A stretch of DNA of 62,884 nt, filler included. It is 9 parts of 9 records of this genome, joined end to end, with 100 filler letters (N's around TTAATTAATTAA, not from the genome) between each part and the next. Parts side by side here need not be neighbours in the genome. Positions count along the whole stretch, not along the records: positions 1 to 6,290 come from SRR31147125_46814; 8 more parts are not named here. One strand, 5' to 3'. Below are positions 1 to 62,471 of the stretch, in pieces. The position numbers were made by a program, and so were the translations under genes. The notes under the pieces are model-generated. The model searched no databases. It had not been told where the DNA came from and saw nothing but the letters and a program-made list of their open reading frames with translations. Position 1 is the stretch's first letter, and each line of letters begins with the position of its first letter.

Positions 1-1
1 A

Positions 2-436
2 ATTATTCAATTTAACGGGCGAATGAAAGCACTTGTCTCGGCAGCAAAACTATTACAGTCGATACTACCATATATGTGGTTGTATAAAATAAATGCCTGG
101 ATTTTAATTCCTTCGAAAAAACATGCACAATCGCGAAAACTATTTATAAAAGAAGCGGTTAAACTTGGCGATCGTGAATTTAAAAAGTGGTTGAAAATGA
201 CCGCCGAAATAAAAGAAAACCTTCAGGAATTTGTTATAAAAGAAGCTTCGGCACCGGTATTATATATTATGGGCGATCGCGATCATATGTTTTTACCAAT
301 GGTAACAAACCTGGTGAAAAAACATATTAATTCAACTCTCGAAATTATTAAAAACAGCGGTCATGTTTGTAATCTCGATCAACCCGAAGAATTTAACGAA
401 CGTTCAATTCAATTTATTAAAACAATTTCAAATTAA
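2..436 (+). CDS. alpha/beta hydrolase, 5'-truncated at window edge
   Basis: C-terminal PVLYIMGDRD...SGHVCNLDQPEEFN (Asp/His of the triad); frame open back to base 2. Confidence 0.8.
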   Translation: MIQFNGRMKALVSAAKLLQSILPYMWLYKINAWILIPSKKHAQSRKLFIKEAVKLGDREFKKWLKMTAEIKENLQEFVIKEASAPVLYIMGDRDHMFLPMVTNLVKKHINSTLEIIKNSGHVCNLDQPEEFNERSIQFIKTISN

Positions 437-621
437 TATTCCCAGTTATCCTAATTTATCCCCATTCTAAATTTATTGCCAAAATAAATTAATTCGCAAG
501 TATTGAATATATTTCGTGTCTTAAACTCAATCTTATTGAATTCAAACAAATAGTAATTAACTATTTTCTTTTTTATTAAGATCATTTTTAAACCTTAAAC
601 AATTGCAGCAATCTTAGCAAT

Positions 622-1011
622 ATGCATATTGTAACAAAAATATTCATGCTGGTTTTTTGTTTTTCTATTTGTAATAATATTTCAGCAAAACAGAACGATT
701 GTAAAATTGAAATTACAATTAAAAATGAAAAGACAGAATATCAGACAAATGACACATTGGAAGTTATGGTAAAAGTACAACTTGACGAAGAATTTTGTGA
801 TGACGCCGGCGAAAAAACCAAAGTATTCTGTACAGGATTAAAAATCATAAACCGCTCGATGTGGAAAAAAATATCACCAGATGTTTTAGGGCAAAAGCTG
901 ACTTTGGCTGTATATAAAAACAACCTATCGAAATCGATAACTGCTTACCGAAAAAACGTACACCATAATTGTTTTGCTCAAAAAATCATTAATGTTGAGG
1001 AAAAAAATTAG
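622..1011 (+). CDS. secreted hypothetical protein, paralog of 2015-2389
   Basis: N-terminal signal peptide; aligns by eye with 2015-2389 (C-x-I...Y-Q-T-x-D...C...TK...GLK...W...KL); stop abuts next ATG. Confidence 0.75.
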   Translation: MHIVTKIFMLVFCFSICNNISAKQNDCKIEITIKNEKTEYQTNDTLEVMVKVQLDEEFCDDAGEKTKVFCTGLKIINRSMWKKISPDVLGQKLTLAVYKNNLSKSITAYRKNVHHNCFAQKIINVEEKN

Positions 1012-2007
1012 ATGACAAGAATTAATAAAGAAAAGATTTATCCAATTATTATATATGTTGTTCTTGGAGTGCTTTTAGTCGATTTTTTGTATAAAAGTTA
1101 CTATGGAATAACTTACCAAACGCGGGAGAATTGTATTCTTTATGCATCATTACCGCGATGGGCATTTCTAATTTACGAATTTACCATCGACCTTTTAATT
1201 ACTGTTTTGGCAGGTATTTTTGCAGGAACACTTCTTCAACGATATTTTACAAAATACAAGCGATTTTATCCAAAAACCCAAATTTCTGCCTTTTTTTATG
1301 CATCAGTAATTCCGGTTTGTTCTTGTTCTGCAATTCCTGTAATTGGCGCCATGCAAGGAAGAATTAGATTGCGTAATATTATTACGTTTGTGGTTGCAGC
1401 GCCTCTTTTAAATCCATACATAATTGCCTTGTCATTTACAGTTCTCGGAAATGAATATGCTATTCTACGTATTTTAAGTTCAATGTTACTGGCTGTTTCA
1501 ACCGGTTATTTTGCTGAACTTATTGCGCCCAACCTTCAGGTTTCCGACCCCGATAAAATGTTACAATCGAGTTGTACAACTTGTACCGTTCAGGGAAAAA
1601 ACCTGTACTCCGAAACATTTCGGATTTTCAGGCAACTGGTTCCTTATTTACTTGTGGCAGGAGCTATTAGTTTAGTATTTGAATTTATCCAGCCAGCCCT
1701 TTTTCTCGAAAAACTTCAACTAAAAGAAGGACCGTTAAGTTCCATTGTTTTTATGGTTGCCGGCATGCCCATATATTTTTGCAATGGAGCCGATATTTTG
1801 TTTCTGCAACCGCTGGTCAATTTTGGTGGATTGTCATTAGAAACATCACTGGCCTTTTCACTTACTTCAACAGCCATTTGTGTTTCATCGTTTTTAATGC
1901 TGGTAAAATACCTCGGAAAAAAATTAACTATAAATATTTCCCTGTTTATAATGGCAATGACTTTTGTTATCAGCCAGTTGGCAGGTTTTGTACAAATCTT
2001 ATTGTAA
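1012..2007 (+). CDS. DUF318/ArsP-like permease, Cys-rich
   Basis: Polytopic; PVCSCSAIP, FVVAAPLLNP and PIYFCNGAD motifs typical of the family; central CTTC. Confidence 0.8.
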   Translation: MTRINKEKIYPIIIYVVLGVLLVDFLYKSYYGITYQTRENCILYASLPRWAFLIYEFTIDLLITVLAGIFAGTLLQRYFTKYKRFYPKTQISAFFYASVIPVCSCSAIPVIGAMQGRIRLRNIITFVVAAPLLNPYIIALSFTVLGNEYAILRILSSMLLAVSTGYFAELIAPNLQVSDPDKMLQSSCTTCTVQGKNLYSETFRIFRQLVPYLLVAGAISLVFEFIQPALFLEKLQLKEGPLSSIVFMVAGMPIYFCNGADILFLQPLVNFGGLSLETSLAFSLTSTAICVSSFLMLVKYLGKKLTINISLFIMAMTFVISQLAGFVQILL

Positions 2008-2014
2008 TAAAATT

Positions 2015-2389
2015 ATGAAGAAATTGTTTGTTTTAATTCTTTTTACATTTCTGCTTTTGCCATTTCAAAAAGCAGAAGCCTGTGAAATTCATTTCTCGGT
2101 AGTTGGAGATGAAAAAGAAAATTACCAGACCGGAGATGAAATTGTATTAAAGGTAGTAGTGGTATTTACGCATCGTCACTGCCATGAAGGAATAGAAAGC
2201 ACCAAATTTAAATACGATGGTTTAAAAGTTCTTGGAGCTACAAAATGGGAAGAAACCGAATTTGGAACATTCGAACGAAAACTAAAAATTGAAGTAGTTG
2301 AAGATGATGGAGAAAATCTAAAACTGGAAGCCATAAGAACCTGTAGAAAAGAAGGCGGTTTTGGAACAATTAGTTTAAGCAGAGGATAA
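2015..2389 (+). CDS. secreted hypothetical protein with THRHC and RTC motifs
   Basis: ATG at 2015 gives MKKLFVLILF...AEA signal peptide; mature chain has three Cys. Confidence 0.8.
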   Translation: MKKLFVLILFTFLLLPFQKAEACEIHFSVVGDEKENYQTGDEIVLKVVVVFTHRHCHEGIESTKFKYDGLKVLGATKWEETEFGTFERKLKIEVVEDDGENLKLEAIRTCRKEGGFGTISLSRG

Positions 2390-2413
2390 TTATCTCTATT
2401 AATAAAAGCAACA

Positions 2414-3796
2414 ATGAACCAAAGGAAAACTCATTTTCAACATCTTGTTTTTTTCAGTATTATTTTGTTTTTTTCGGGGAACACACTCACTTTAAATGCA
2501 CAGGATTTTCAAGAAAAACAAGATGTTTTTGAAACGTTTACCGACGATTATATTGAAGGCCAAAACCAGGTTTGCGAAAGCTGCAACGATGGGGCTTGTT
2601 CTGTTGGAGCCGGCACAAACATAACAGCCCCTGTTTGGTTAAGGTATTCTATTCTTTCGTTGCTTGCACTTTCCATTGCATTTGTACTTAAAAGAAAATT
2701 CGGATGGCAGGCAGTGGGTATTTTGTTGGTTTTATTTGTACTTGGTTTTATTCCCGACAAACATGTTTGTTTTGATGCTAAAAATCAGAATGAAAATGTA
2801 GTATTATTTGCATCATCATCTTTTGCAGAACCGGAAAAAGATGAAAAAAATAACGTATCGGAAGACACTCGGAAAGATGATTTTAAAGAATTTACTGATG
2901 ATGATTTTGAACAGTTTTCCGATGATGAATTTTCTGAATTTTCCAATGAATTTAATTCCGGTTTTATCGCTGAAACTTCAATAGAAAAAGAGTATACAAT
3001 TCTATCAGATCCCAATTTTATACTCTCCATCGAAATTCTGTTGCTTACCCTTTTAGCCGGAATTCTAATTAAATTTAAGGCAACCCGGAAACTGCGTGTT
3101 TTCTTTTTGATTGGTTCTGTTGTTTATCTGGGTTTTATTAACGGTGCCTGCCCTTGTATGATTTCCAGCTTTCAAAATGTAATTCTTTTTCTTGCCGGAG
3201 TACCTGTAAAACCAGTTCTTTTCATCTGGTTTTTGGGCTTAATACCGCTTACATATTTTTTTGGCAAAGTATGGTGCGGTTGGGTTTGTCATTTAGGAGC
3301 ACTTCAGGAATTTATTTACCGTCCGGGCATTCTCAGCATTTTAAAAAATCAAAAATCTCAAATAATTCTAAAGTATTTCAGAATAGTTGTATTGGCCATT
3401 TTAATTGTACAATTACTCATTACAAAAACCAATATTTTTATTCATTACGATCCTTTTAAAGTAGCTTTCAATCTCTTTTCAGCAAATACGCCAGGCTACA
3501 TTTTACTGGTACTTTTATTAGGCTCTTCGTTGTTAATTTATCGCCCGTTTTGCAGAGCTTTTTGCCCGATTGGACTTATTTTAGGATGGGTAACATACAT
3601 TCCGGGCAGCAGTAAATTACAAAAAAACAACTCTTGCATCGATTGTAAAAGTTGTAGTAACTCGTGTAAATACAATGCCATGGTTTACGAAAACAAAAAA
3701 AGCATATTAAATAACGACGATTGTATTCTTTGCGGAGATTGTTTCGAGAGCTGCAAATTCAATTCACTTGAAATAAAAGGAATAGCAAAAAAATGA
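2414..3796 (+). CDS. membrane 4Fe-4S binding protein (NapH/YccM/NosR C-terminal type) with acidic N-terminal extension
   Basis: GACPC, WCGWVCHLG, FCRAFCPIG and two CxxCxxCxxxC motifs; multiple TM helices; ATGA overlap with next gene. Confidence 0.85.
   Translation: MNQRKTHFQHLVFFSIILFFSGNTLTLNAQDFQEKQDVFETFTDDYIEGQNQVCESCNDGACSVGAGTNITAPVWLRYSILSLLALSIAFVLKRKFGWQAVGILLVLFVLGFIPDKHVCFDAKNQNENVVLFASSSFAEPEKDEKNNVSEDTRKDDFKEFTDDDFEQFSDDEFSEFSNEFNSGFIAETSIEKEYTILSDPNFILSIEILLLTLLAGILIKFKATRKLRVFFLIGSVVYLGFINGACPCMISSFQNVILFLAGVPVKPVLFIWFLGLIPLTYFFGKVWCGWVCHLGALQEFIYRPGILSILKNQKSQIILKYFRIVVLAILIVQLLITKTNIFIHYDPFKVAFNLFSANTPGYILLVLLLGSSLLIYRPFCRAFCPIGLILGWVTYIPGSSKLQKNNSCIDCKSCSNSCKYNAMVYENKKSILNNDDCILCGDCFESCKFNSLEIKGIAKK
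2876..2953 (+). repeat. 8-aa acidic Phe repeat in coding sequence
   Basis: DDFKEFTD-DDFEQFSD-DEFSEFSN-EF, 24-nt period. Confidence 0.8.
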
Positions 3797-5100
3797 AAAG
3801 ATACTTTATTCTGTTCATCATTATTTTTATAGTAAATTCGGTAAAAGCACAATGGGAATGCCCCAGCAAACTGGCCGCTAATTTCGATCCTGTTGGAAAC
3901 AGTTCCTTATTATTGGCCGGCGAAATTAGTGTGAGTACAGGTTTTCTCGATGGCAACTCGATTAACAGTGCTTTAGGATTTCTAGGTGCCGATTATTCAT
4001 TTCATAATCATTCATTTTACTTTGAAGGTGGATTAAAATCGTGGGCGAAATATAATGTTGAAACCGAGAATCTTTTTCATAAAGTGCGGTTTGGAGTACG
4101 CGAGCTTTTTTATCAATATCGTGGAAAAACTAACAACCTGACCGTTGGAATACAAACCTCATCGCTCGACGATCATTTTATTTTAAATGAGCGAATTGCA
4201 GGAATAAATTACAGCATTGAATCGGGGCGTTGGAAATTCACAGCTGTTTCAGGATCGGTAACCAAAGATTTTGCCCGAAATGGCATTTATTGCACAACTG
4301 GGTTTTTATATGAACTCTCAACCGGACAAAATTCTGCCTTGCTGGGAAATACATTGGGAGATAAAAATATGGGAGGTTTTTCACTTACCTATTTCCCGAA
4401 AAAAGAAAAGATGACTGCTCAAATCAGCGAATCACACGACGATGAATTTGAAGCATATGACAGCAACGAATTTGAGGCATTTGACAATAACGAATTTGAA
4501 TCGTTTGAACCGGAACCAACCTCCGGAAAAAGTAATTTTCTAACCGAACTTGAAAAAGCAGGAATTGTTGCATACAGCGAATTTGGAAAATGGATTCAAC
4601 AGCCTCTTTTTATTGCCGGGGCATTTGCCGAAATAAAACTTCCGGGTGACATTTTCTTTAAACCCGAAATTTTAGTTCAGGAAGCCACTGAAAATAAAGC
4701 GTTGATTTATATAACAGAACTAGACAAAACCATAAGTTTAAAAAATGGGCACCGGCTCACATTAAATACCGGATGGTATAATTTTACTGAAATCGATAAA
4801 GGAGCAATGCTTTTAAATTCGTACAGTAATATTCTGGCAGGCGAAGTTTTACGGCTCGATGCAGCCAACATGCCCTTTTATCTTTTTGGAATTAAATACA
4901 ATATTCCATCAACAAAATTACATTTCAAAATTCAAAATGTAAATCAGTTCAACAGTAATAATCTTAAAGAATGGGATTTGGCAATTGGCAAACAATTTAA
5001 AAAGAAACTTTTGGTTAATACAAAATTTGGGTTGATAAATGGAGGCGATCTCCCTGAAAACATATTTTTAGGAAGATTAGAAATTAGGTATTATTTCTAA
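3793..5100 (+). CDS. putative outer-membrane beta-barrel protein
   Basis: Signal peptide ending VKA-Q; alternating amphipathic strands; C-terminal RLEIRYYF barrel-type signal. Confidence 0.7.
   Translation: MKRYFILFIIIFIVNSVKAQWECPSKLAANFDPVGNSSLLLAGEISVSTGFLDGNSINSALGFLGADYSFHNHSFYFEGGLKSWAKYNVETENLFHKVRFGVRELFYQYRGKTNNLTVGIQTSSLDDHFILNERIAGINYSIESGRWKFTAVSGSVTKDFARNGIYCTTGFLYELSTGQNSALLGNTLGDKNMGGFSLTYFPKKEKMTAQISESHDDEFEAYDSNEFEAFDNNEFESFEPEPTSGKSNFLTELEKAGIVAYSEFGKWIQQPLFIAGAFAEIKLPGDIFFKPEILVQEATENKALIYITELDKTISLKNGHRLTLNTGWYNFTEIDKGAMLLNSYSNILAGEVLRLDAANMPFYLFGIKYNIPSTKLHFKIQNVNQFNSNNLKEWDLAIGKQFKKKLLVNTKFGLINGGDLPENIFLGRLEIRYYF
4441..4512 (+). repeat. 8-aa acidic Phe repeat in coding sequence
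   Basis: DEFEAYDS-NEFEAFDN-NEFESFEP, 24-nt period. Confidence 0.8.
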
Positions 5101-5111
5101 AATTTTAAAAT

Positions 5112-6131
5112 GTGAAGAAGAATCTAGCACAAACAGGAAGACGCAATTTCATTTTAACAGGTTCAAAATGGGTGACAGGAAGTATTTTGTTAAGTCAATT
5201 AACTACTTCGTGTAACGAAAGTTTTTATCAGACACTTTTAATCGATAAAACTTCATGCATTGGATGCAACGATTGCTATTCTGTTTGCAACTTTAATGCC
5301 ATTGAAATTACAGGAAAATCGGCATATAACATTGAAGAAAACAGCTGTACTTTATGTGGCTGGTGTGTCGATAATTGCGAAGAAAACGCAATAAATGTCC
5401 CGGTCGAAAACTATTTAATCAATAATTTGCTTTGTACCGACTGTTCAGAGTGTGTGCCTTACTGCAATTACAATGCAATTTCAATTGCCGGAGCTTCTAC
5501 GTACGAAATAGAATCGGGTTGTGTAGGATGTGGCGATTGTATTACTGCTTGCGAAAATGAAGGAGATGCAATCACGTATGTAGTTAGTAATTATTCGGTT
5601 AAATCAAATTGCCATGGATGTGTTGGGCGTTGTTCAGGTGTATGCAGCGACAAAGCGATTTCAAAGATTGGAGGGAAAGCCTCTATTAATACTTCTAAAT
5701 GTACAAAATGTGGAAAATGCCTGGCTGCCTGTCGACATAATGCTATTAGTAAAGCGTATGTTAAAATAGTTCAGGATAAATGTATAAAATGCGGAAGTTG
5801 TTACGAGGCCTGCACGTATAAACATATAAATAAGTCAGATACTAATTCTTCGGTTGAAGCATCAACAATCGTAAGAACTGCATGTACAAATTGTGGAGAA
5901 TGTATCGATCACTGTCAGCAAGAGGCAATTTATATTGAAAAAACAGCAAATTATTTCACTCCGGTAATCGATAATAATTTATGTTCGGCCTGTGGTAAAT
6001 GTTTTGATACCTGTTCGGTCAATTCAGCCATAACACGCAAGTTGGCTACTGTAGAAATAAATCAGGAGAATTGTATGAAATGTATGAACTGCAAAGAAAT
6101 CTGCAATTCTAATGCAATTGATTTAACTTAG
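5112..6131 (+). CDS. polyferredoxin with ten 4Fe-4S motifs and a Tat/lipoprotein signal
   Basis: GTG start; TGRRNFIL twin-arginine motif; TTS-C34 lipobox-like; nine CxxCxxCxxxC plus one CxxCxxxCxxxC. Confidence 0.85.
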   Translation: MKKNLAQTGRRNFILTGSKWVTGSILLSQLTTSCNESFYQTLLIDKTSCIGCNDCYSVCNFNAIEITGKSAYNIEENSCTLCGWCVDNCEENAINVPVENYLINNLLCTDCSECVPYCNYNAISIAGASTYEIESGCVGCGDCITACENEGDAITYVVSNYSVKSNCHGCVGRCSGVCSDKAISKIGGKASINTSKCTKCGKCLAACRHNAISKAYVKIVQDKCIKCGSCYEACTYKHINKSDTNSSVEASTIVRTACTNCGECIDHCQQEAIYIEKTANYFTPVIDNNLCSACGKCFDTCSVNSAITRKLATVEINQENCMKCMNCKEICNSNAIDLT

Positions 6132-6235
6132 ATTCTGAGTCCAATTTTAAAACTGAGGTTTTTATTATTAGAAATCCGTCAATCTGCATTCGTTGTTTAC
6201 CAATAACTCTGAATAGATACCTTCAATTAATTTAA

Positions 6236-6266
6236 AATAAAAAAGGGGTAACCTCTGTCACCCCTT
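6236..6266 (-). terminator. intrinsic terminator of a convergent gene, possibly bidirectional
   Basis: Minus strand AAGGGGTGAC-AGAG-GTTACCCCTT followed by a T run. Confidence 0.65.
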
Positions 6267-6290
6267 AACCAAATCTATCTTTGTAACCAA

Positions 6291-6390
6291 NNNNNNNNNN
6301 NNNNNNNNNNNNNNNNNNNNNNNNNNNNNNNNNNTTAATTAATTAANNNNNNNNNNNNNNNNNNNNNNNNNNNNNNNNNNNNNNNNNNNN
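6291..6390. other. artificial contig linker
   Basis: N run with central TTAATTAATTAA (stops in all six frames). Confidence 0.98.
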
Positions 6391-6463
6391 CGAACCCTTT
6401 AGGGTGAAGCAATCCAGGGCTAATAGTTTATGCTCGGGATTGCTTCGCTACGCTCGCAATGAC
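6391..6463. repeat. REP/REPIN-like palindromic element, cut by contig edge
   Basis: GAAGCAATCC...GGATTGCTTC inverted repeat followed by GCTACGCTCGCAATGAC. Confidence 0.7.
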
Positions 6464-6479
6464 GAGTTCTCCATCTATC

Positions 6480-7403
6480 TTATGTTGTCCACTCCAAATC
6501 AGTTTCTCTCGTCCAAGATTCCTTAATAATGTTACTTATATCAAAAATTGCTCGATCAATATCTTTCAAACGATATTCGATTCTGTCAGATACAAAGTGT
6601 GAGAATTCCTTATCACTAATAAAAAAGTCCAAAATAATAATTCCATCACTAAGCTCTGTATTAATTCCAATAGGTGTTGAACAATCTGCGCCTAAGATTT
6701 TTAAAATTCCAAATTCAATTTCAGAGATAGTTCGTTGGTGGCCCGAATCGATTTTGGAGATGGCTTTAATCGTTTCCAAGTCGTCATTTCTGGTTTCTAT
6801 AGCAATGACACCCTGACCTGGGGCCGGAATAAAATCTCTTTTGTTAAGAATTTCTGTTACACGATCTTCCTTTGAAAGTCTTTTAAGCCCAGCATATGCA
6901 AGAATGATGGCATCGTACTGGCCTTCGTCCATCTTCTTAATACGAGTTTCAATATTTCCCCTTATAGGTTTAACATTTAGCTCTGGACGAATATTCTTTA
7001 AGATAGCTGTTCTTCTAGGACTTCCAGTTCCAACGTGCGAATCATCAGTGAGATCGCTGAGTGTCTTACCTATTAGCACATCTGAATTGTCTTCTCTGTC
7101 TAGGAAGGCGGCTAATGTAAAATCGGAGGATACTTCGGCAGGTATATCTTTTAGTGAATGAACAGCTGCATCAATTTCATCTTTCAAAAGTGCTAGTTCA
7201 AGCTCTTTAATAAAGATTCCTTTGCCGCCAACTTCAGTAATTGGTCGATCTCTTTTTCGATCGCCTGAAGTTTCTATTTTTATGATTTCTATATCAGAAT
7301 CGCAAAAGCCGTTATCAAGAAGTTCATCAATAACAATTTGTGTCTGTGCTAGTGCTAAGCTTGATGCTCGAGTTCCGATTCTCAGTTTTTTCTGAATAGT
7401 CAT
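6480..7403 (-). CDS. hemC: hydroxymethylbilane synthase
   Basis: IGTRASSLALAQ, GKGIFIKELE, VHSLKD, IRGNIETR, PAPGQG; cofactor Cys in ADCSTPIG. Confidence 0.95.
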   Translation of the reverse strand: MTIQKKLRIGTRASSLALAQTQIVIDELLDNGFCDSDIEIIKIETSGDRKRDRPITEVGGKGIFIKELELALLKDEIDAAVHSLKDIPAEVSSDFTLAAFLDREDNSDVLIGKTLSDLTDDSHVGTGSPRRTAILKNIRPELNVKPIRGNIETRIKKMDEGQYDAIILAYAGLKRLSKEDRVTEILNKRDFIPAPGQGVIAIETRNDDLETIKAISKIDSGHQRTISEIEFGILKILGADCSTPIGINTELSDGIIILDFFISDKEFSHFVSDRIEYRLKDIDRAIFDISNIIKESWTRETDLEWTT

Positions 7404-25821: not shown

Positions 25822-27377
25822 ATGAAAGAAAGTTCACCCCCCAATTTCGTCAATAATTTTCAGCCTCCGCCGGATGCGACCATTGAATTGAAAAACGGTA
25901 GAGTTGTCGATGTCATGAATGGCAGATATTTCAATAGGGACGTAAAATTGATTCTCAAGGGCAGAAGAATTGAAGCCATGCCCGGAGTCGACAATGAACC
26001 GTCGGATATCAAAACTGATTTTGTTATCGATCTCAAGGGAAAAACGGTCATGCCCGGTTTGTTCAATACCCATTGTCACACGACCATGACATCCCCTTCC
26101 CTACTCCCGGATATCTGGGATGTAAAGCGACTCAAAAAACATGCTGATAAACAGATGGAAAAGAGTATGGCGGACTGCCTGATCCACGGAATTACCAACA
26201 TTCGAGATACCTGGGCCGCAGATTTACGGAAGCTGAGAGTACTTCGGGAGAGGATTCAAAAGAGGGAGCTGGCAGGTCCCAGGATCATGCAATCCGTTCT
26301 CGTGGGGCCTCCCGGAGGATACTTGACGGAAACATACGGATGGATGATGAAACGAGTCAGGTCCATTATGGGGGCACCTCCCATGGAATACGATGCACAA
26401 TTTTGCGGAACGGTACTATTTCCCGTCGATGCAGATGAAAAGCAGGTAAGAGACGCCGTGGACAGAGCCATTGATGAACGGGGAGCCGAAACCATCAAAA
26501 TCGGAGAGCAGAAGGAAAATACGACAAATTTCAAACCCGATGCCACCATTATGAGCATGGAACAGTTGGCAATCATTGCAGACCAGGCACAAAAGAGAAA
26601 CGTCAAGTCAACGATCCATCACGTGTCAGCCGACTCATTTAAACGCGCCTCAAAAGCCGGGGTTTCATCTTTGGCCCACATGGCATGTGACGCACTTCTT
26701 ACTGAAGAGGATATCACCCGGTTCCTATCCCAAGGATGCATGATTGAGCCGACCATGTCCGTTGCCTACGATATCAGTTACAAAATAAAAAATGATGAAT
26801 CGCTCCTGGACGATTGTTATCTGAGTGCACTGACCCGCTTCAGAAACCAAGTTCATACCGACATTGTAAAGCAGTTTTGGATCCCCGAGTATCAACGCTG
26901 CGCCCAAAACCATCACCAAAAATTGAGCAATAAAAAAACAACAATTTTTGGAATTTTACCCATGAAAACACTGTTTGAAAACGGTGCACTCGTTTGCACC
27001 ACCGGAGCCAGAAACCTCATTAAGCTCTATATGAGCGGCGCACCCGTAAGCATTTCCAATGACGGCGGCGTCCCCCCTGTACAGTGGCCATGGTGCAACA
27101 TGAAATCGATCTACTCCACCTTTTTTTGAATCAATCCTCACAAAAAGATCTGTTCAAGGGGGCGGATGCAGTGCGGGCCGCCACCATAAACGGCGCCAGA
27201 TGCCTGGGACTTGAAAGGGATTTCGGCTCCATTGAAACCGGAAAAATCGCCGATCTGGTCATTGTGGAAGGAAATCCGTTGGAGGATTTCCGGCTCGTGG
27301 GCAGCCCTGTGGCAGCCCTTTTCATGGATGGAAGGCTGGTGATTGACAATTGCAATCTTGAGGCTGTTCCTGTTTGA
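25822..27377 (+). CDS. metal-dependent amidohydrolase; one gene with a frameshift in the C run at about 27072-27077
   Basis: PGLFNTHCH; NDGG continues into ATINGA...GSIETGKIADLVIV in the other frame. Confidence 0.85.
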
Positions 27378-36502: not shown

Positions 36503-39500
36503 TCAATTTTGAATTCGAAACAGCTTATATCGTTCCGGCACCACTTTCCAATCCAGATCCCGCTTGATCTGATAAATCACATCTGCCGAATTTCGAATGC
36601 CGGGAGGCAGATCAAACGTTTGACAGAACATCTCTCCCCAACTGTTTCGATAAACCGCAGAGCACTCCGTAATCACCTTGGCATTTCTCGGGGAAGTAAA
36701 GTTGACGGAAACAAAAAGAGAATCGATTCTGCTCTTATTGAATAGATCCTTACTGGCCGTGCCTCTCTCCATGTCCGGTAGAAAAAAGTCATACATGTTT
36801 TTTAAGAGCAGACGAATATCATTGGCCCGGACATGGGTAGGGTTGGGGTCCAGTTTGATGTAGGCATCCGGAGAGTAAAGACGGTTATGAATGAGCCAGG
36901 CGGCAATATCCTCCACGGTTGAGGCGGATTTCAACTGCTCCACCTCTTCTATCCCCTTTTTCCGATCTCCCCATTTATGAATCAAGGTCCAGACGGATTG
37001 TTTTCGTCGATCATAGGAGTGAAGCAGACTCAACCCGTTGAGAAGGCCGTCACTGGCCACCAGAAGCACGGTCTGGACTTTTGACGCCTCTTTGTTGAAC
37101 TGCACAAACATTTTTCTGCCCAGTACGGTACGATCCCTGGGAGTCAACAACGATTCCTCTTCAGTGGAAACACCCAAGGCATCCCGGACACTGTTGTAAG
37201 TCCTCACCATGAAGCGCTCGATGCGAAGGCTTTCCTTGGACATTGCCCGAAAAGACCAATTGTTGATATCTCCTGCGCGAAACACATCCCCCTTTTCCCA
37301 GCCCCACTCTTCCATACACTTTTCAACAAGAATCCACTTAAGCCCAAAGGCACTTTTGCGAAGACTTTTATCATCGGTGATATGTATTTTCGAAAAAAAA
37401 CAGGATTGAACCAGACTACAAAATTGCTTTTTGTTTATATTTTTCCCATAAAACGCCACCAGACTTTTCAGCAATATATAATAGGGATCCGACTTGGTTA
37501 AACTGAACTGAAGCCCCGGATTCATCCAGTGATCCTTAAATTGATTGCAAAGCAGCATTCGGGAATCTTTCTTCTCATGGATATACCGCTCTAAAAGACC
37601 CATTTTCAGCACGGATTTAAAAGGGCTTTTTAAATATTTGAACATCTGCCACACCGATGCTCCGAAGTATTCTCCAACCGGTATATCGTGGATATCTCCA
37701 AAATCGATATACATACCGCTCTTCGGTGTCGGGCATGCTCTGACATAAAGATCGTGATAATAATTTTTACTCACCTTCGTCGAAAGCGTGGCCCAAAAGG
37801 GAATTTTTCCAGCCACATGAATCATGCTGCGGTAGAACTCTTCTTTTAAAAGTCTTCCCTGGGCGGAACCGGAACTTTCACTGTCGGATTCTCCAAAAAT
37901 GGATCGTTTGGCATCTTCAATATCAACAATGAAAAAATGAATTTCCGTTTTGAATTGCAGTTCAGCCCATGATTCAATCGCTCTGAGTTTCTCGTTCAAC
38001 AGCGTTATCATCTCATTATCGAACATCACCGACTGAATACAGACCCAATAATCAATATCCGATCCCTGGGTGTGGGCAATGGAACCGATACTGCCGATGG
38101 TGAATACGCCTTCTATGGCGCTGTCCCGATTTTCTCTAAATGCAATGCCGTAATCGTTATCCAGGTATTTTGCTGCGGCATATTTTCGATAGAGTTTCTC
38201 TGTTTCGGCACCGGGCAGATAACCGGCAATTCCCTTTGGAATTTTTTTCAGCTTATTTCGTTTTCGGTCTTTCCATGTGGCATCAAAGACCATCTGTGCC
38301 AACTGCCGGGATCGGGAAGAGGATTTGTAAAGATCGATGTTTTCATGAAGAAGTAATGGGACCAACTCAAAAAGATCGGCCTGTTCCGGCTGAAAAAGAT
38401 CAAATGCCACGGTAAGGGCATATCTGTTTTTTTGAAAAAAAGTGCGTTTCCCCTGCTGGATCAGTTCCGTAAAGAGAAGAAGGTTCCATTCATTGGCAAT
38501 GGTGGTATCCTGCAAAATGATTTTCAACAACGGACTGACGGACTGGGTCGGGAGATCAAATATTTTTTCAGCAAGGCTGGCGTACTCTGTCTCTGCTTTT
38601 GAAAGGCTGTGGGGGGTGAATCGACAAAATTTACCCACCACCCCGGAAAAATCGGTGTTATCTAATTTGGCCTTTTCAAATGATACATAACTAATCCGAG
38701 ATCCTACAAAAGTAGCACCGGATAAATCCGTACCGGAGGATCCATCAATACTTTCTATCCCCATCCCGTTTACGGCAGGATTTCGAGTATTTTTATCCCC
38801 CCTAAAGAATTTCCACGCTTCTGAGATGCTCCATTTTTATTGTTCCCGTCTCCCTGGCCCCCTTGGGTGTTCTCAATATCATATCTGGAAAAACGGGTAA
38901 GAGCGAGATGGCAATCTGCAAAGACCGCATCCTCCATGACCGCAGAATCAAAGTTGCTTTTAAAGATGGATGAACCGGTAAAGCTGCACCGATAAAACGT
39001 TGCGCCGACAGCGGATGCATCGATGAACACGCACTTTTCAAAGTGGGCATACTGAAATGCACTCCCGATCATTTTGGTACAGTAGAACGTTGTGTGGTAA
39101 AAATGGACATCTTCAAAAGTAGAAAAAGAGAAATCCACATCCCTAATCACACAACGATAAAAAACAATGGATGTGGGAATTGTATTGAATGAGAGATCGA
39201 TTCCCTCAAACAACTCTTCTTCAAACCGCATCTCATTAAAAGTATCCGAGGTTTTCAGCGCTTCGATTTTTTGATCCAGTGTGGTCCGGAACATGGATTT
39301 AAAAAAACCGCTTTTCTCTTTTTTGGGCTGAAAATTCCGGGCATGTTGAAGCATGGCATCAAATGAGACTCTAATCCTTTTTTCTCATGATCGAGCAGCG
39401 GTGAAATGGTCTCTTTCAATCGGGAGAGGGCTTGACCAATCCGGGCATTGGGATGGTCCCGGTATATTTGAAGCTGAGAAAGAATGCGCTCGGGCCGTTT

Positions 39501-43827: not shown

Positions 43828-43927
43828 NNNNNNNNNNNNNNNNNNNNNNNNNNNNNNNNNNNNNNNNNNNNTTAATTAATTAANNNNNNNNNNNNNNNNN
43901 NNNNNNNNNNNNNNNNNNNNNNNNNNN
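43828..43927. other. artificial contig linker
   Basis: N run with TTAATTAATTAA. Confidence 0.98.
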
Positions 43928-45902
43928 AAAAGATTTTTGCACCAGACCGAGACATCATAGCGTCCCCAGCGGAATCCGGCTTTGAGGTTGAACAGGGCAT
44001 AGCCGTCATCCTCCAGGGTATTGGCTGCATCAAAGTATTGTTGCCCGGCCCAGAAAACATTGGCCGTGCTGTAAAAGCCGCTGTCATGGGTGTAGGAAAC
44101 CCCTGCATTGGCCGTCAGATCCGGGGCCCAGGGCAGGGTACATCCGCTGTAATCCTTGACGCTGCCGTCCAGGGTTCCGATCCAGTGATCAATTTCAGCC
44201 TCGGCATACCCGATGCCTGCAAAGACCTCCAGATTATAGGCGGGAAGGGCTCTCACCTCCAGTTCAACCCCCTGGGTGTGGGCGTCGGCCGCATTGGTGA
44301 TCTTCCATGACCCGATGCTGCCGTCGGCAACCTCCTCTTTGATCTGCTTGTCTTTAATCTCGGTATAAAACACGGAGAAACTTGCGTTGAGGCGGTTGTT
44401 GAAGAATGAACTTTTTATTCCGGCCTCGTAATTTGTCGTATATTCCGGTTCATAGGCGAAATTATCCTGGGAGGTGGCTGAGTAATAATCATACCCCCCG
44501 GCCATCCACCCCGTGGAAAAGATCAGATACCCTGTGGTCTCCGGTGTGAACTTCCAGGACAGGGAGGTTGTGGGCAAAAGTTGGGTATCTGAAAGATCCT
44601 CGGTATAAAAGGTGGTCCCGGATGTGCTGATATAGGTCTGGGCACCGGATGCCGATGCATGGTCCACCCGCAGGCCCGCCGTAAAGGATAATTTTTCCGT
44701 AAGGGCCCGGGTGGCATTGCCAAACAGGGCCAGGCTGTCTGCATGGGAGTCTGTCAGCCGCTGGTTGGCCAGGGCCGCGCTCACATGTTCCAGTTCCCAG
44801 TCATTCTCGATCTCCTCTTTGGAGGCATAGGCCCCCACCAGCCAGGAAGAGAAAAAACCTGTGGAAGCGGAGCTAAAAAGACGGAATTCCTGGGTCCAGG
44901 ATTCCCGGGATAGGTCGATATAAGAGACGCTCAGGGCTGAATCGGTCCGGTCCGAATCCATGAGACGTTTTCTGTTAAAATCCTGGTGTGAACTAACCGA
45001 AACCAGGTCGGCATCCTTAAAATGGTACTTTGTCTTCAGAGATTGACCTAAGCTGTCCTGTTCGGCACGGGATTCCTGGTTGTTGATCACCGTGTAGGCC
45101 TCTGTGGCCCAAGCACCGTCAAGGTACCTCAAATTGTCAAGCCCCTGGTCCTGGTCTGCACCGTTCAGGGCAAAGGTGATATCCAGGTCCTCATTGGGGG
45201 TGAATCTCAGGCTGGCCCGGCCTGTAAAACTTTCATTATCCGAGGCGGTATCCGTCCCCATATTTGAATTGTCCATGTACCCGTCCGACATACTTTTCAA
45301 GGCCGATATTGTATAAAACAGGGTATCCTTCTTCAAGGCTCCTCCCACCATGGCCCCGCCGGTAAAGGAATCGTAGGAGGCCGCCTCCAGCAGCACCCGG
45401 GCCCGGGGGTGTTTCCCTGGGACGCCGTCACCAGATTGATCACCCCCGAAGAACTGTTCTTTCCGTAAAGGGTGGACTGGGGCCCTCTGAGCACCTCGAT
45501 GCGCTCAAGGTCAAACAAGGGCTGAGCCTGCATATAACTTAAGGGGAAGGCCAGGTCATCCATGTAAAAGCCCATGGGCGAGTACAGGGAGGTATCTATG
45601 GTGGAAATGCCCCGGCTGACAAAGGCATCCCCTGAAGTGGCGGTTTTAAAGAAAAGGTTGGGCACAAGTTGGCTCATCTCACCACTGGTTCGGATATTTT
45701 GCTCCTCCAATTCCCGGCTGCCCATCACGGTGATACTGGCAGCCACATCCTTGGCCAGTCCCACTTTTTTCTCTGCCGTCACCACAATGGTGTCCAGCTG
45801 GACGGTCTCAGATTCCTCTTCCGCCATTGCCCTGGACGCTGTTGTCAGGATCATGGCCGCGAATATCAAGACGGGAAGCATCTTTTTTAAGATATACCAC
45901 AT
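43928..45902 (-). CDS. TonB-dependent receptor (FyuA-like); frameshift near 45405; 3'-truncated
   Basis: Signal peptide, DTIVVTAEK TonB box, ERIEVLRGPQSTLYG plug motif, NYEAGIK. Confidence 0.9.
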
Positions 45903-46019
45903 GGTGAACTCCTCTGTGTTTTTTAGGTTGGCCTTACTTATGGTTTTTGATCGAAGTTTAGGCAAGATGAGATCAAAAGGCTATCATTTGCGGAACGGTT
46001 TGGATAATACCGTGAAAGG

Positions 46020-50650: not shown

Positions 50651-50750
50651 NNNNNNNNNNNNNNNNNNNNNNNNNNNNNNNNNNNNNNNNNNNNTTAATT
50701 AATTAANNNNNNNNNNNNNNNNNNNNNNNNNNNNNNNNNNNNNNNNNNNN
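50651..50750. other. artificial contig linker
   Basis: N run with TTAATTAATTAA. Confidence 0.98.
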
Positions 50751-51084
50751 GAGCTCCGAAAAAAAAGGGTCTTAATTCCCTCTTCGCACTTAACCCCACA
50801 AGCTCTTGAAATAAGTCGACACCAGCAACTCTCCCTGGCAAGGGCTTCCCCAAGATCTTTGATGCCCATACAATGGGCATTCCATCAACATTAACGATGT
50901 CACACGAATTAATGATTGCTTTGAGTTGGTGATCGTTTTGCATGTTTACGATCTTTGCAACATTCACCACAACATGTTGCCTTGGGGCGCCCTTTTTTAT
51001 TATTCTTTCTACCAATTGAATCGTATCATTCATAGTAAGCGCATCAATTTGGCAGCCAAAGATAGAACACGTATTTTCTTTCAT
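50751..51084 (-). CDS. WecB/TagA/CpsF family glycosyltransferase, 3'-truncated
   Basis: VVVNVAK, DGMPIVWAS, RVAGVDL, FFFGA. Confidence 0.9.
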
Positions 51085-57038: not shown

Positions 57039-57621
57039 TTATTCTTCAGTGTTCAACCACTCCTCATACGCTTCGGATGACACAACACGAAGTACGGCAG
57101 TCATATCGGCATGACCAATCCCGCAGAATTCGGTACACTGGATAAAATAGCGTCCGATTTTCTCGGGATAGAACCAAGCATAGGTGTGAACGCCGGGAAC
57201 AGCGTCCACCTTTATTCTGAATGCCGGAATAAATAGTCCGTGGATGACGTCATCGGAGGTGATATTGAGACGGATAGGACGTCCCATTGGAACCACCAGC
57301 TCACTGTCTGTCTCTTTCTCATTGGGATAGATAAATATCCAAGAGTACATTTGGGCAATGGTTTCAATTTCTAAGGCCCGCATAGGATGACCACCCAATC
57401 CAGAACATACTCAATGCAATGAGGGTCGGGATGACCGTCCAGACCACCTCCAGCTTCCAGTTTCCTCGAATGTCGGCAGGGACGGGATGTTTACTTCTAC
57501 GATATTTAATCGTAAACCAGATCATGGTCAGGGTGATCAGCGTCAGTAGAATCAAAGATATTCCAATAATATAAATGAATGCCGCATCAACGTGTTCAAC
57601 AGGACTCATTATGTCACTCAT
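57039..57621 (-). CDS. coxB: cytochrome c oxidase subunit II, disrupted near 57370
   Basis: Two TM helices, LEVVWTVIP, DVIHG, CTEFCGIGHADM CuA site; no fused cytochrome c. Confidence 0.88.
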
Positions 57622-57652
57622 ATGGACGGACTCCGTTTTTTATTCAAAAAAG

Positions 57653-57940
57653 TTATCGGAAAGCGATATCCCAAAATAAAAATCCGATCAATATGGCCAA
57701 AAATCCGATGGTGACAAGAAAAGAGCTCTTGATTAAAATCGGTTCATATTTCAAGTGCATGAAATAGAGTAAAACAAAAGAGGCTTTAATAGACGCAATA
57801 ATGAGTGCCATCCAGATGTTGAGTACACCCAGATCGAGCCGCGATACCAATACGGTTACGATGGTTAAGCCCAATAATATCAACAAAATTTTAAAAAGTT
57901 GACCATAGGATTGTATATGCATTTCATTGTTTTCTTTCAA
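57653..57940 (-). CDS. coxD: cytochrome c oxidase subunit IV
   Basis: Three TM helices, KASFVLLYFMHLKYE. Confidence 0.85.
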   Translation of the reverse strand: MKENNEMHIQSYGQLFKILLILLGLTIVTVLVSRLDLGVLNIWMALIIASIKASFVLLYFMHLKYEPILIKSSFLVTIGFLAILIGFLFWDIAFR

Positions 57941-58060
57941 TGGCGTCTCTCCTAAGTACGAATAAATGAAAGATCGGGCAAAGGAAGTTGAGTTTTTTAT
58001 CAGTCGCCGGTTCAGATGAGTGACTAAGAGTGTAATCGGTTGGTTTACCCCACGCTTGTA

Positions 58061-60357: not shown

Positions 60358-60386
60358 AATGATAAAGTGATCAGATGACAGGCTGA

Positions 60387-61337: not shown

Positions 61338-61422
61338 CGATATTGTTCTCCATTTGAGTGAGTGGATTGTTGGCCAAGCAGACTCGTCATAGAGAGCGAC
61401 AAGACAAGAATGGAATTATGGA

Positions 61423-62205: not shown

Positions 62206-62471
62206 AAACTCACCTCATGAATAAAAGTTGAAAGGTTACAATCGGGTACAGAGTCGTTTTTTAGGTCAGCCCGATTATGAAGAACGGACTTTGGGGAAGT
62301 TTCAGATATGAATAGGTGTTTTTCTGCGTTCAATAAAAGTAAGTGCAAAAAGGAAAATATTCAAGCTATTTTGCAAAAACGCCAATCAAAGAAGAGAAAT
62401 ATTCGACTTCTTTTTGGATGAAAAATTCTGAGATATGGAAGAGTTCGTGTTTTTTCAGCGTTTTGATTGCT

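Follow-up and report, generated by a model that had tools for sequence, protein, structure and literature searches.

Six co-oriented genes, g1 to g6, on the + strand of the window (the whole stretch of 62,884 nucleotides analysed here, filler included) encode a set of envelope proteins that recurs in other Bacteroidota and whose probable role is electron transfer across the envelope in the handling of a metal. Our best reading, held tentatively, is that g1 to g6 make up a single conserved module of Bacteroidia that spans the envelope and serves both redox chemistry and transport; its function may be the reductive handling of a metal, with iron as the likeliest substrate. An ORF scan of positions 622-6131 reproduces the layout described in a first-pass annotation of this DNA, with intergenic distances of 0, 7, 24, -4 and 11 nt from g1 to g6. 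The parts list given there (secreted paralogues, permease, NapH-type protein, barrel and exported 10-cluster polyferredoxin) is borne out as well. The features are:

437..621, + strand: leader and putative promoter region 5' of g1
622..1011, + strand: g1, small secreted Ig-like protein of 129 aa (ORF, paralogue of g3), of the S' type that precedes the permease
1012..2007, + strand: g2, ArsP_1 (DUF318) permease of 331 aa, PF03773
2015..2389, + strand: g3, small Ig-like probable lipoprotein of 124 aa, of the S type that precedes the NapH-like and barrel genes
2414..3796, + strand: g4, NapH-like membrane Fe-S protein of 460 aa, two Fer4_5 matches and a C-terminal 2x[4Fe-4S] domain
2801..2983, + strand: acidic linker of g4, probably periplasmic, [DEN][DE]F repeats at residues 155, 163, 171 and 178
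3793..5100, + strand: g5, 18-strand outer-membrane beta-barrel of 435 aa (AlphaFold2 model, Foldseek)
4414..4527, + strand: disordered acidic insert of g5 between strands 8 and 9, [DEN][DE]F at residues 217, 225 and 233
5112..6131, + strand: g6, exported lipoprotein polyferredoxin of 339 aa, 10 [4Fe-4S] motifs, GTG start
5112..5213, + strand: signal of g6, with twin-arginine motif, hydrophobic stretch and lipobox-like site LTTS-C34

The start of g3 is taken at the internal ATG at 2015; the listed ORF begins at a TTG at 1964. According to the ORF listing, an alpha/beta-hydrolase gene ends 185 nt before g1, and approximately positions 440-545 are conserved, as judged by eye, with the Draconibacterium-like loci L002, L019 and L060. 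The 437-621 leader matches no Rfam family at E<=1 and contains no riboswitch, and among upstream regions compared by k-mers no regulator-site motif was enriched.

The set was found again at 59 loci in genomes and 72 in metagenomes, almost all with a Bacteroidota label; the two collections overlap and their members are related by descent, and their counts are therefore not independent. The genes thus co-occur elsewhere, as the reading in the first-pass annotation requires, and a literature search found neither a characterised operon that matches the cluster nor a description of it. Since the arrangement is syntenic in dozens of other genomes, it is far beyond chance. The usual order in ORF maps of relatives is S-NapH-barrel-ferredoxin-S'-permease, and tblastn around the barrel gene of the 59 genome loci detects g3-like sequences in 54, g4-like in 46, g6-like in 40 and g2-like in 34. 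The set occurs in a minority of Bacteroidia: the barrel is carried by 2 of 401 sampled Bacteroidia genomes and, within the family of the query genome, by 13 of 201, the query itself being included in both counts. Eight minimal genome loci consist of barrel and S without a NapH-like gene, and a Fer4_5 protein was found nowhere in two of three searched genomes with such loci; it follows that the outer-membrane core does not depend on g4. These g4-free loci are a point against the best reading.

The barrel protein g5 has no match in Pfam or NCBIfam. Its AlphaFold2 model is confident (pLDDT 84.4, pTM 0.81) and has 18 strands, as in OprD and AlgE; Foldseek matches it to solved outer-membrane barrels at E of about 1e-10, which upholds the earlier assignment of 3793-5100 to a barrel. 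An alignment of 94 sequences of the family shows C23 in every one and C167 in 90% or more, with F as the last residue of the consensus. Residues 208-245 have pLDDT below 50, and usual barrel topology would place the insert in the periplasm. The model thus strongly predicts an 18-strand outer-membrane channel with an acidic tether similar to that of g4.

The match of g4 to Fer4_5 scores 53.4 bits (cut-off 22), and a dicluster domain is present at the C-terminus. Among its relatives, G.CPCM is found in 39 of 46, WC.W.CH.G in 44, PFCR..CP.G in 43, and two C-terminal cluster motifs in all 46. In 9 of the 59 genome loci g4 and g5 are one in-frame ORF, and 11 more such fusions occur among 47 metagenome loci; here the ferredoxin domain runs into a basic stretch, then a hydrophobic helix and A-x-A, with QWEC next. 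Because the NapH-like part of these fusions leads in frame into the signal peptide of the barrel, the C-terminus of g4 is placed in the cytoplasm, and g4 is strongly predicted to be a NapH-like inner-membrane protein whose two [4Fe-4S] clusters face the cytoplasm. Its N-terminal extension is new. By hydropathy, a signal peptide and two transmembrane segments precede the linker, which puts the acidic repeat tether, together with the Cys motifs, on the periplasmic side, again as a strong prediction. Per 100 aa, [DEN][DE]F occurs 0.94 times in NapH-like proteins and 0.52 times in barrels, compared with 0.11 times in 498 other ORFs; at least three copies are present in 28/37 NapH-like proteins, 19/50 barrels and 6/498 other ORFs. 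Both g4 and g5 carry the repeat in their putative periplasmic tethers.

In g6, RRNFI is found at residue 10 and Cys34 follows the hydrophobic stretch; nine of its cluster motifs are CxxCxxCxxxC and one is CxxCxxxCxxxC. Ferredoxins of the cluster have 10-14 clusters with about 30 residues between them. The signal peptide ends in [ASG]-C, lipoprotein-like, in 59 of 59, of which 29 are Tat-type (RR.F[LI]-type motif) and 30 Sec-type; TatC is present in four of five relatives' genomes tested. There is thus a strong case that g6 carries a chain of ten [4Fe-4S] clusters, leaves the cytoplasm by the Tat route and is anchored by lipid.

The two Ig-like proteins align over 97 aa with 27% identity (pairwise E 1e-9) and are therefore regarded as paralogues; g1 belongs to no Pfam family. 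The AlphaFold2 model of g3 (pLDDT 89.2) is an 8-strand sandwich with generic fold matches only. Relatives of g3 have a signal peptide ending in [ASG]-C in 45 of 47 cases, and H..C and R.C..[ED]G in all 47. These data strongly indicate that g3 is an Ig-like lipoprotein, found almost without exception together with the barrel, and g1 its soluble paralogue. DsbD_N is among the ESM Atlas structural look-alikes of a g3 homologue (TM 0.58), a lead only.

The permease g2 matches Pfam ArsP_1 (PF03773) at 83.8 bits (cut-off 32.3, E 1.5e-23), with eight hydropathy peaks and CSC at residues 103-105. This motif marks metal efflux permeases in the ArsP family, which, as far as bioRxiv 10.1101/2022.07.06.499078 describes it in part, is known for efflux of soft metals and organoarsenicals and not for iron uptake; the family is to that extent a point against iron uptake. 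An S-family gene lies directly before the permease in 32 of the 33 genome loci with a called permease ORF, a pairing not mentioned in those parts of the literature on ArsP, SO_0444 and SaoE permeases on which we drew.

As had been noted from the sequence, CxxCH haem motifs are absent from all six products. The earlier remark that every product has extra Cys agrees with the counts (6, 7, 3, 18, 2 and 41 from g1 to g6), but a role in redox or metal binding need not apply to all of these residues: the first Cys of g3 and Cys34 of g6 occupy lipobox positions, and the Cys pairs of g3 and g5 could be disulfides.

Among known systems, NapGH, like MauMN and NosGH, pairs a Fer4_5 membrane protein, which ends in a 2x[4Fe-4S] domain, with a periplasmic ferredoxin that has a Tat signal; NapH acts with periplasmic NapG in electron transfer, according to part of PMC5928378. 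Unlike NapH/MauN, g4 scores 65.7 bits against TIGR02163, under the cut-off of 213, and has the new extension; its first motif is CX3CH and not CX3CP in 44/46 relatives, and the mapped loci encode no NapA or other terminal reductase. NapG has four clusters, whereas g6 has ten and a lipobox. NosR and PceC/RdhC, as outlined in PMC8238504 and PMC5928378, similarly use a NapH-like module with an extracytoplasmic N-terminal part to feed periplasmic partners; unlike them, g4 has no FMN_bind domain or flavinylation motif, and has Cys motifs, two extra transmembrane segments and the tether instead. The products of Rubrivivax ftrAPBCD include two periplasmic proteins, one that binds iron and one that is an oxidase, besides an outer-membrane protein, a permease and a polyferredoxin of the membrane (partial account in PMC7415376). 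The cluster resembles FtrABCD/FtrAPBCD in uniting, in one operon, two periplasmic beta-sandwich proteins with an outer-membrane protein, a permease and a membrane polyferredoxin (PMC7415376, PMC11966278, in part). It differs in that g2 is ArsP_1 and not FTR1, in its additional soluble polyferredoxin, in ligands that are Cys-rich rather than carboxylate/His, and in the proposed reduction, where Ftr oxidises Fe(II); in a scan of 75 S-family members, the 25 families with most matches, out of 51 at E<=1, include neither P19 nor a cupredoxin family.

Like MtrCAB and PioAB, the cluster encodes a periplasmic multi-centre redox protein beside an outer-membrane barrel, and like MtrC its redox partners are lipoproteins; the centres here are Fe-S clusters and not CxxCH haems. 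An MtrB-type sheath has 26 strands, and threading of the ferredoxin chain through g5 in porin-cytochrome fashion is unlikely, 18 strands being too narrow to sheathe a ferredoxin. The trans-envelope Fe-S conduit of the first-pass annotation is thus supported in part, by the resemblance to NapH/NapG, but not in its porin-cytochrome analogy.

Some relatives have additional neighbours. A DUF2271 protein with a T9SS tail is encoded in 16/58 genome and 18/47 metagenome loci, with the [ST]GA[ST] flavinylation motif in 13 of the 16, and in only one of five relatives' genomes searched. PMC8238504, in part, links this motif in DUF2271 to iron assimilation by PepSY-like/DUF2271 reductase clusters; unlike those, the mapped loci show neither PepSY nor DUF4198, their DUF2271 protein ends in a T9SS sorting tail, and a membrane partner, where there is one, is NapH-like. 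The window has no DUF2271 gene. ECF sigma/FecR/TonB receptor genes are found in 5 genome and 8 metagenome loci; for ferritin-like genes (DUF2202) the numbers are 4 and 3. Only a minority of loci have such iron-related neighbours, and neither the window nor the Draconibacterium-like loci do, which counts against the best reading.

A dissimilatory role is conceivable, if unlikely: g4 and a polyferredoxin wire would take fermentation-derived electrons to the outer membrane and on to a mineral, humics or an electrode, in many relatives with a surface flavoprotein at the last step and the permease pair as accessory. Long (10-14 clusters), lipid-anchored ferredoxins suit this, as do the T9SS-secreted, flavinylation-motif DUF2271 proteins encoded directly after the permease in the same orientation (L080, L086 and L090-L092, among others), the ability of the cytoplasmic domain of g4 to accept, potentially, electrons from reduced ferredoxin, and the HydABC-like hydrogenase genes adjoining four Draconibacterium loci. 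However, by comparison with MtrB a barrel of 18 strands leaves no space for a wire made of protein, and beyond two Cys it shows no evident redox cofactor site; the cluster is rare; and retention of permease and S' in 33/33 untruncated NapH loci with a Sec-type ferredoxin and 19/25 with a Tat-type one argues for transport. Transport outward, by which the cell would rid itself of a thiophilic metal(loid), for example Cu, Zn, Cd, Hg, As, Se or Te, is improbable: g2 would export the species from the cytoplasm, the Ig-like proteins chaperone it, the Fe-S chain alter its oxidation state in the periplasm and the barrel release it. The nearest named relatives of g2 are indeed the SO_0444 Cu/Zn efflux and SaoE efflux families, which share CSC, far under their cut-offs (46.9 against 300 and 42.8 against 325 bits), and the CPC motif at the periplasmic end of a g4 helix (39/46 relatives) and the HxxC and Cys motifs of g3 are conserved; yet the mapped loci lack ArsR, MerR, CueR and P-type ATPases, TonB receptors imply import, and 17/35 S' sequences keep only one conserved Cys.

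We give still less credence to a thiol/disulfide relay or extracytoplasmic Fe-S maturation, in which exported Cys-rich proteins would owe their reduced state to the periplasmic Cys motifs of g4 together with the Ig-like Cys proteins and the CSC permease; these might also supply iron and sulfur to load ferredoxins exported unfolded. The Sec-type signals on 30/59 ferredoxins, the permease in 33/33 untruncated NapH loci with such a ferredoxin against 19/25 with a Tat-type one, and the failure to find TatC in six of six genomes with minimal loci (including a complete 2.69-Mb chromosome) point this way, together with a full-length DsbD directly upstream in L073 and L090-L092 and the DsbD_N likeness, a lead only. 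The DsbD link is, however, confined to this single lineage, the Tat-type ferredoxin of the window would not need such service, no permease lies near the minimal Sec-type loci, for which 3/3 genomes have just a remote ArsP_1 (23-26% identity) elsewhere, and neither an Fe-S scaffold nor a cysteine desulfurase is found in the set throughout.

For reductive metal handling, g4 would take up low-potential electrons, either from donors in the cytoplasm or from the quinone pool, and pass them to the periplasmic polyferredoxin, which the shared [DEN][DE]F tethers would keep between the two membranes. The ferredoxin would reduce a metal species entering through, or held at, the barrel with g3, most likely Fe(III) and possibly a thiophilic metal, and the Ig-like proteins would pass the reduced ion to the permease. 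Several observations count against this: no substrate, regulator or catalytic subunit was identified in the six genes and mapped loci, 10-14 clusters seem more than an assimilatory reductase needs, and Cys/His-rich sites suit soft metals more than Fe(III). The metal(loid) uptake, reduction or efflux machine that the first-pass annotation offered as its alternative fits at least as well as its conduit, because of the CSC permease, the binding-protein-like Ig paralogues and the TonB receptor/FecR, ferritin-like and flavinylation-motif DUF2271 neighbours. If reductive metal handling is correct, the cluster would be a haem-free analogue of redox-coupled metal acquisition, of the Ftr or PepSY/DUF2271 type, and not a copy of a porin-cytochrome respiratory conduit.

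The cluster consists of six co-oriented genes separated by 0, 7, 24, -4 and 11 nt, and none of their products contains a CxxCH motif; both points, made in the first-pass annotation, are borne out by the ORF listing and by a motif scan, respectively. The coordinates are those of the ORF listing, except that g3 is taken to start at the ATG of MKKLF, internal to the listed TTG ORF.

622-1011, + strand: g1, small secreted Ig-like protein of the S' type
1012-2007, + strand: g2, ArsP_1 permease
2015-2389, + strand: g3, Ig-like protein of the S type
2414-3796, + strand: g4, NapH-like membrane Fe-S protein
3793-5100, + strand: g5, predicted outer-membrane barrel
5112-6131, + strand: g6, exported polyferredoxin

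A fragment of an alpha/beta-hydrolase gene lies upstream of the cluster and convergent hemC and hemA genes lie downstream, in a region with a G+C content of 29-38%. In Draconibacterium (loci L002, L003, L004, L019 and L060), the place of hemC and hemA is occupied by HydABC-like genes, which are located on the minus strand 3' of the ferredoxin gene, converge on the cluster, and encode a NuoE-like 2Fe-2S protein, the large subunit of [FeFe]-hydrogenase, and a 597-aa Fe-S protein that we take to be NuoF-like. An Rfam search of positions 1-7000 at E<=1 found no riboswitch or other family, the sole match being a chance hit to RNA-OUT (E 0.89), and the same search of ten relatives' loci returned one tRNA and nothing else. 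A scan for sigma-70 promoters and terminators did no better than on shuffled sequences. Apart from a leader with lineage-specific conservation, a k-mer search of upstream regions brought up no convincing candidate for a regulator site. This leader, at 440-545, 5' of g1, has no Rfam match, holds conserved blocks common to the Draconibacterium-like loci L002, L019 and L060 (for example, TTATTTAATCC...TCTAAATTT and TTCGCAAGT...CGTGTC), and may be a promoter plus operator.

The genes co-occur well beyond the window, as would be expected of the functional system that the first-pass annotation had proposed: the cluster recurs in 59 loci from a scan of species-representative genomes and in 72 further loci from a metagenome scan, of which 49 of at least 6 kb share the architecture, though some metagenome loci duplicate genome loci and the counts are not independent. 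Chance adjacency of the six genes can be rejected on the basis of this synteny. Nearly all of the 59 genome loci are labelled as Bacteroidota or its subgroups, the exceptions being one Kapabacteria and two without a taxon label. With the window proteins as tblastn queries, g3-like genes were found in 54/59 genome loci (a contig end truncates three of the five loci without one), g4-like in 46/59, g6-like in 40/59 and g2-like in 34/59; ORF-based motif detection found exported ferredoxin-like genes in 50 of 58. The usual gene order is S, NapH-like, barrel, ferredoxin, S', permease; the window and six Draconibacterium-like loci have hydrolase, S', permease, S, NapH-like, barrel, ferredoxin. A large protein collection contains 93 homologues of the barrel, the best match sharing 59% identity; those that carry a name are from Draconibacterium, Prolixibacteraceae, Saccharicrinis and Carboxylicivirga. 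The barrel is rare: of 401 sampled genomes of the class, 2 encode it, as do 13 of 201 in the query genome's family, and both counts include the query genome itself.

In g4, Pfam detects Fer4_5 over two stretches and a dicluster ferredoxin domain at the C-terminus. The protein scores above the gathering threshold of Fer4_5 (PF12801; 53.4 bits vs 22) and resembles NapH/MauN and NosR, yet falls well under the curated NCBIfam cut-offs of NapH/MauN (TIGR02163, 65.7 bits vs 213.05; PRK09477, 49.6 vs 234). From hydropathy, the predicted order is a signal peptide, a periplasmic Cys segment, two transmembrane helices, an acidic linker, five more helices, and a cytoplasmic ferredoxin domain. Protein g4 shares with NapH/MauN the Fer4_5 superfamily and a cytoplasmic 2x[4Fe-4S] domain, but differs in that the first CX3CP motif is replaced by CX3CH: the first motif of the membrane module reads WC.W.CH.G in 44 of 46 relatives, and CP is found there in none of the 46. 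The second motif, PFCR..CP.G, is found in 43/46, a G.CPCM motif in 39/46, and the C-terminal pair of CxxCxxCxxxC motifs in all 46; six of the 46, at under 400 aa, are missing the greater part of the N-terminal extension, some being truncated at a contig end. The genomic context is different as well, as no nap, mau or nos genes are found in the window or the annotated loci. Unlike the flavinylated NosR/PceC systems, g4 has no FMN-binding domain (no FMN_bind match in Pfam), and the window has no gene for an FMN-binding domain with an [ST]GA[ST]-type site; a DUF2271 protein with this motif is encoded only in some relatives.

The NapH-like and barrel genes are merged into a single ORF of 866-933 aa at 9 of the 59 genome loci and at 11 of 47 metagenome loci; within it, the ferredoxin domain is followed in frame by a basic stretch, a hydrophobic helix and the sequence A-x-A|QWEC. 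Such in-frame fusions to the barrel signal peptide place the Fe-S domain of g4 on the cytoplasmic side and the barrel portion outside the cytoplasm, and they argue for a 1:1 partnership; a cytoplasmic Fe-S domain has likewise been published for NapH-type proteins (PMC5928378). The fused genome loci are L012, L014, L016, L017, L018, L020, L029, L031 and L040, and their junctions lie some 110 aa ahead of QWEC. All retain the signal peptide of the barrel and the A-x-A|Q site between the two halves, which points to internal signal-peptide cleavage that would release the outer-membrane protein. The acidic linker of g4 and a disordered acidic insert of g5 (residues 208-245 in the model) both contain [DEN][DE]F repeats. 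The frequency of this motif per 100 aa is 0.94 in NapH-like proteins, 0.52 in barrels and 0.11 in the other ORFs of the same loci (n=498), and at least three copies are found in 28/37, 19/50 and 6/498 of these proteins, respectively. Given periplasmic termini, the g5 insert, between strands 8 and 9, would be a periplasmic turn, in which case both membranes would expose a common short motif on their periplasmic sides.

No Pfam or NCBIfam family matches g5, and 32 members of its family have no meaningful Pfam match; a DUF5723 assignment, suggested by the UniRef label of one homologue, was rejected, as none of these 32 matches DUF5723 meaningfully. The call of a barrel at 3793-5100 in the first-pass annotation stands, in that the model built on an alignment of 94 sequences from the homologue search has 18 strands (pLDDT 84.4, pTM 0.81). 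An N-terminal hydrophobic segment is seen in the hydropathy plot, and the family consensus ends in ...R.xF. Foldseek comparison of the model with PDB retrieves OprD/Occ, AlgE, chitoporin and MOMP (E 1e-10 to 1e-8, TM 0.45-0.56), which we take to be 18-strand substrate channels, and g5 is therefore predicted to be an outer-membrane beta-barrel with an OprD/AlgE-like fold. In porin-cytochrome conduits of the MtrAB kind, by contrast, MtrB has 26 strands and the periplasmic partner is a multihaem cytochrome with CxxCH sites, a motif absent from all six products here; since 18 strands are too few to sheathe a ferredoxin domain, g5 is not thought to work like MtrB, and a role in passing or holding a small substrate is more likely. 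A complex of mature g5 and mature g3, predicted with alignments unused, scored 0.00, which speaks neither for nor against binding.

In the polyferredoxin g6, RRNFI at residue 10 represents a twin-arginine motif, Cys34 follows a hydrophobic stretch, and ten cluster motifs are spaced by about 30 residues. By pattern match, every cluster ferredoxin, 58 from genome loci and the one in the window, has a signal peptide ending in [ASG]-C. Twin-arginine motifs are present in 29 of these 59, including every long one with 7-14 clusters, and the remaining 30 are Sec-type proteins with 2-6 clusters. Periplasmic Fe-S proteins are thought to need Tat export as folded holo-proteins, and TatC was found in four of five relatives' genomes tested. 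Eight genome loci are minimal, with genes only for a divergent, putative ferredoxin lipoprotein of 92-106 aa, DUF2271, S and the barrel; TatC was detected in none of six minimal-locus genomes tested vs all four full-locus genomes, and no Fer4_5 protein was found genome-wide in two of three minimal-locus genomes searched. Sec-type lipoprotein signals on ferredoxin-like 2x[4Fe-4S] proteins are found in loci L041-L044, L047, L048, L056, L057 and many others, in genomes for which TatC went undetected (0 of 6). If the Sec-type ferredoxins do carry Fe-S clusters, these would have to be inserted outside the cytoplasm. The permease gene is present in 33/33 untruncated NapH loci with a Sec-type ferredoxin vs 19/25 of those with a Tat-type one, and a gene for full-length DsbD (DsbD_N, DsbD_TM and thioredoxin-like domains) lies directly upstream on the same strand at L090:2912-5008, with matching ORFs in L073, L091 and L092; the four are 75-91% identical and so represent one lineage. 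As the loci are related and partly redundant, the link of the permease trend and DsbD to extracytoplasmic Fe-S loading is only suggestive.

Proteins g1 and g3 are paralogous, with 27% identity across 97 aa (E 1e-9). The g3 model (pLDDT 89.2) is an eight-strand Ig-like sandwich, for which fold searches returned generic Ig-like domains and no functional family (Foldseek E no better than 6.6e-4; highest VIA Z 9.6, for pilin and macroglobulin domains); a g3 homologue, P0102, matched unnamed Bacteroidota clusters in the Atlas and DsbD_N at TM 0.58, which is a lead only. In S-type proteins, encoded before the NapH-like protein and the barrel, the signal peptide ends in [ASG]-C in 45 of 47 by pattern match, so that the first Cys is probably a lipidation site; H..C and R.C..[ED]G are conserved in all 47, and the other two Cys may form a disulfide or a metal site. 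S'-type proteins, encoded before the permease, mostly retain a single Cys. An S-family profile gave 357 matches at E<=0.001 among 1.84 billion representatives; the best 150 of these are all stand-alone proteins of 74-176 aa with no informative domain fusion. When 75 S-family members were scanned at E<=1, 51 families were matched, and neither P19 nor a cupredoxin family is among the 25 with the most matches. The permease g2 matches ArsP_1 only (PF03773, E 1.5e-23, 83.8 bits vs a threshold of 32.3); it shows eight hydropathy peaks and a CSC motif at C103-S-C105, a conserved feature of ArsP_1 permeases described in the Haft preprint. It belongs to neither the SO_0444 nor the SaoE equivalog, scoring 46.9 vs 300 for SO_0444 Cu/Zn efflux and 42.8 vs 325 for SaoE.

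In the relatives, a DUF2271 protein with a T9SS sorting tail is encoded at 16/58 genome and 18/47 metagenome loci, often directly after the permease. The [ST]GA[ST] motif, found in 13 of the 16 genome-locus proteins, is the ApbE flavinylation site of DUF2271, and such proteins have been tied to iron reduction and assimilation (PMC8238504). ApbE is encoded in all five genomes tested, and DUF2271 in only one of them, where it is adjacent to the cluster. Genes for an ECF sigma factor, FecR and a TonB receptor head or follow the cluster in five genome and eight metagenome loci, DUF2202 ferritin-like genes are seen in four genome and three metagenome loci, and rubrerythrin, AhpC and SufS are occasional neighbours; none of these genes is found beside the window's copy. 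NCBIfam searches with the neighbouring TonB receptor, the DUF2202 protein, a 410-aa ORF of L006 and others named no substrate.

The first-pass annotation had not recognised the arrangement as a named system, and we likewise found no description of it in the literature searched; Supplementary file 1 of PMC8238504, a list of clusters with NapH-like and DUF2271 proteins, might include relatives. We file the cluster with NapH-based extracytoplasmic electron transfer, with outer-membrane parts that are not described in that literature. The barrel, the Ig-like S proteins and the N-terminal extension of g4 are families without a Pfam model. The firm part of our reading is the layout, in which g4 is a cytoplasm-facing Fe-S entry point, g6 an exported ten-cluster chain, probably lipid-anchored, g5 an outer-membrane channel with its own probable lipoprotein, g3, and g2 a permease accompanied by soluble Ig-like g1. 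The precedent of NapH/NapG lends support, by analogy, to the passage of electrons from the membrane to the periplasmic ferredoxin (PMC5928378).

As to function, we tentatively rank reductive metal acquisition first, with iron as the most likely metal, because the set of roles is Ftr-like and the neighbours in relatives include TonB/FecR, ferritin-like and DUF2271 genes. The Rubrivivax FtrAPBCD system comprises the same roles, with two periplasmic proteins (one iron-binding, one redox-active), one protein of the outer membrane, a permease, and a polyferredoxin in the membrane (PMC7415376). The protein families of FtrABCD and FtrAPBCD, which include an FTR1-family permease and P19 or cupredoxin periplasmic proteins, nevertheless differ from those of the cluster, g2 being ArsP_1 and not FTR1. 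Several observations run against metal acquisition. The iron-related neighbours are present in a minority of loci and absent from the window, and the chain of ferredoxin clusters exceeds the length that assimilation would seem to call for. The family of g2 is known for efflux of soft metals and organoarsenicals, and Cys/His chemistry fits soft metals. Among the rival readings, a dissimilatory electron sink appears unlikely to us, soft-metal detoxification is, in our estimate, distinctly improbable, and a role in thiol or Fe-S maturation, near which the DsbD genes and the permease trend would fall, deserves still less credence.

Beyond reductive metal acquisition, one may speculate, at low probability, that the cluster represents a new haem-free wiring of the envelope, in which a lipid-anchored Fe-S chain would be joined by shared acidic tethers to the NapH-like protein and a small barrel; in Tat-less relatives, export would be by Sec and Fe-S assembly extracytoplasmic, with the CSC permease and its Ig-like partner as candidate suppliers. 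We know of no Fe-S cluster assembly outside the cytoplasm in bacteria.

Elsewhere in the window, a haem-copper oxidase set (COX1, COX3, COX4_pro, a short COX2 piece, UbiA-like, and SCO1/SenC) and a MauE-like gene occupy 57042-62879 on the minus strand; an organism so equipped is probably able to respire oxygen, which bears on survival of an exported Fe-S chain. A TonB-dependent receptor on the minus strand at 43879-45965 appears to be divided between two ORFs, one for the Plug domain (45336-45965) and one for the barrel (43879-45396), with an overlap of about 60 nt; a frameshift, a pseudogene or a mistake in assembly could explain this. An amidohydrolase at 25822-27374 on the plus strand is also split, into a 435-aa ORF and a 97-aa ORF holding the C-terminal end of the family; together with short fragments of COX2 (119 aa, 57042-57398) and WecG (129 aa, 50698-51084), this suggests that several genes are broken or that sequencing errors are present. 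The minus strand at 36506-38764 encodes a class-I adenylate cyclase (Adenylate_cycl and Adenyl_cycl_N), of a family best known from Gammaproteobacteria.

To our knowledge, the routes described for electrons through the Gram-negative envelope make use of multihaem cytochromes or flavins, and the Bacteroidia that carry the cluster are fermentative sediment dwellers without such cytochrome conduits. The cluster brings together an outer-membrane barrel and a polyferredoxin that is exported and apparently lipid-anchored, and it could account for metal reduction or acquisition by these Bacteroidia. Cultured carriers include Draconibacterium, Saccharicrinis, Carboxylicivirga and Bacteroides reticulotermitis, so that genetics is feasible, and the putative Sec-type ferredoxin lipoproteins of Tat-less relatives raise the question of Fe-S insertion outside the cytoplasm.
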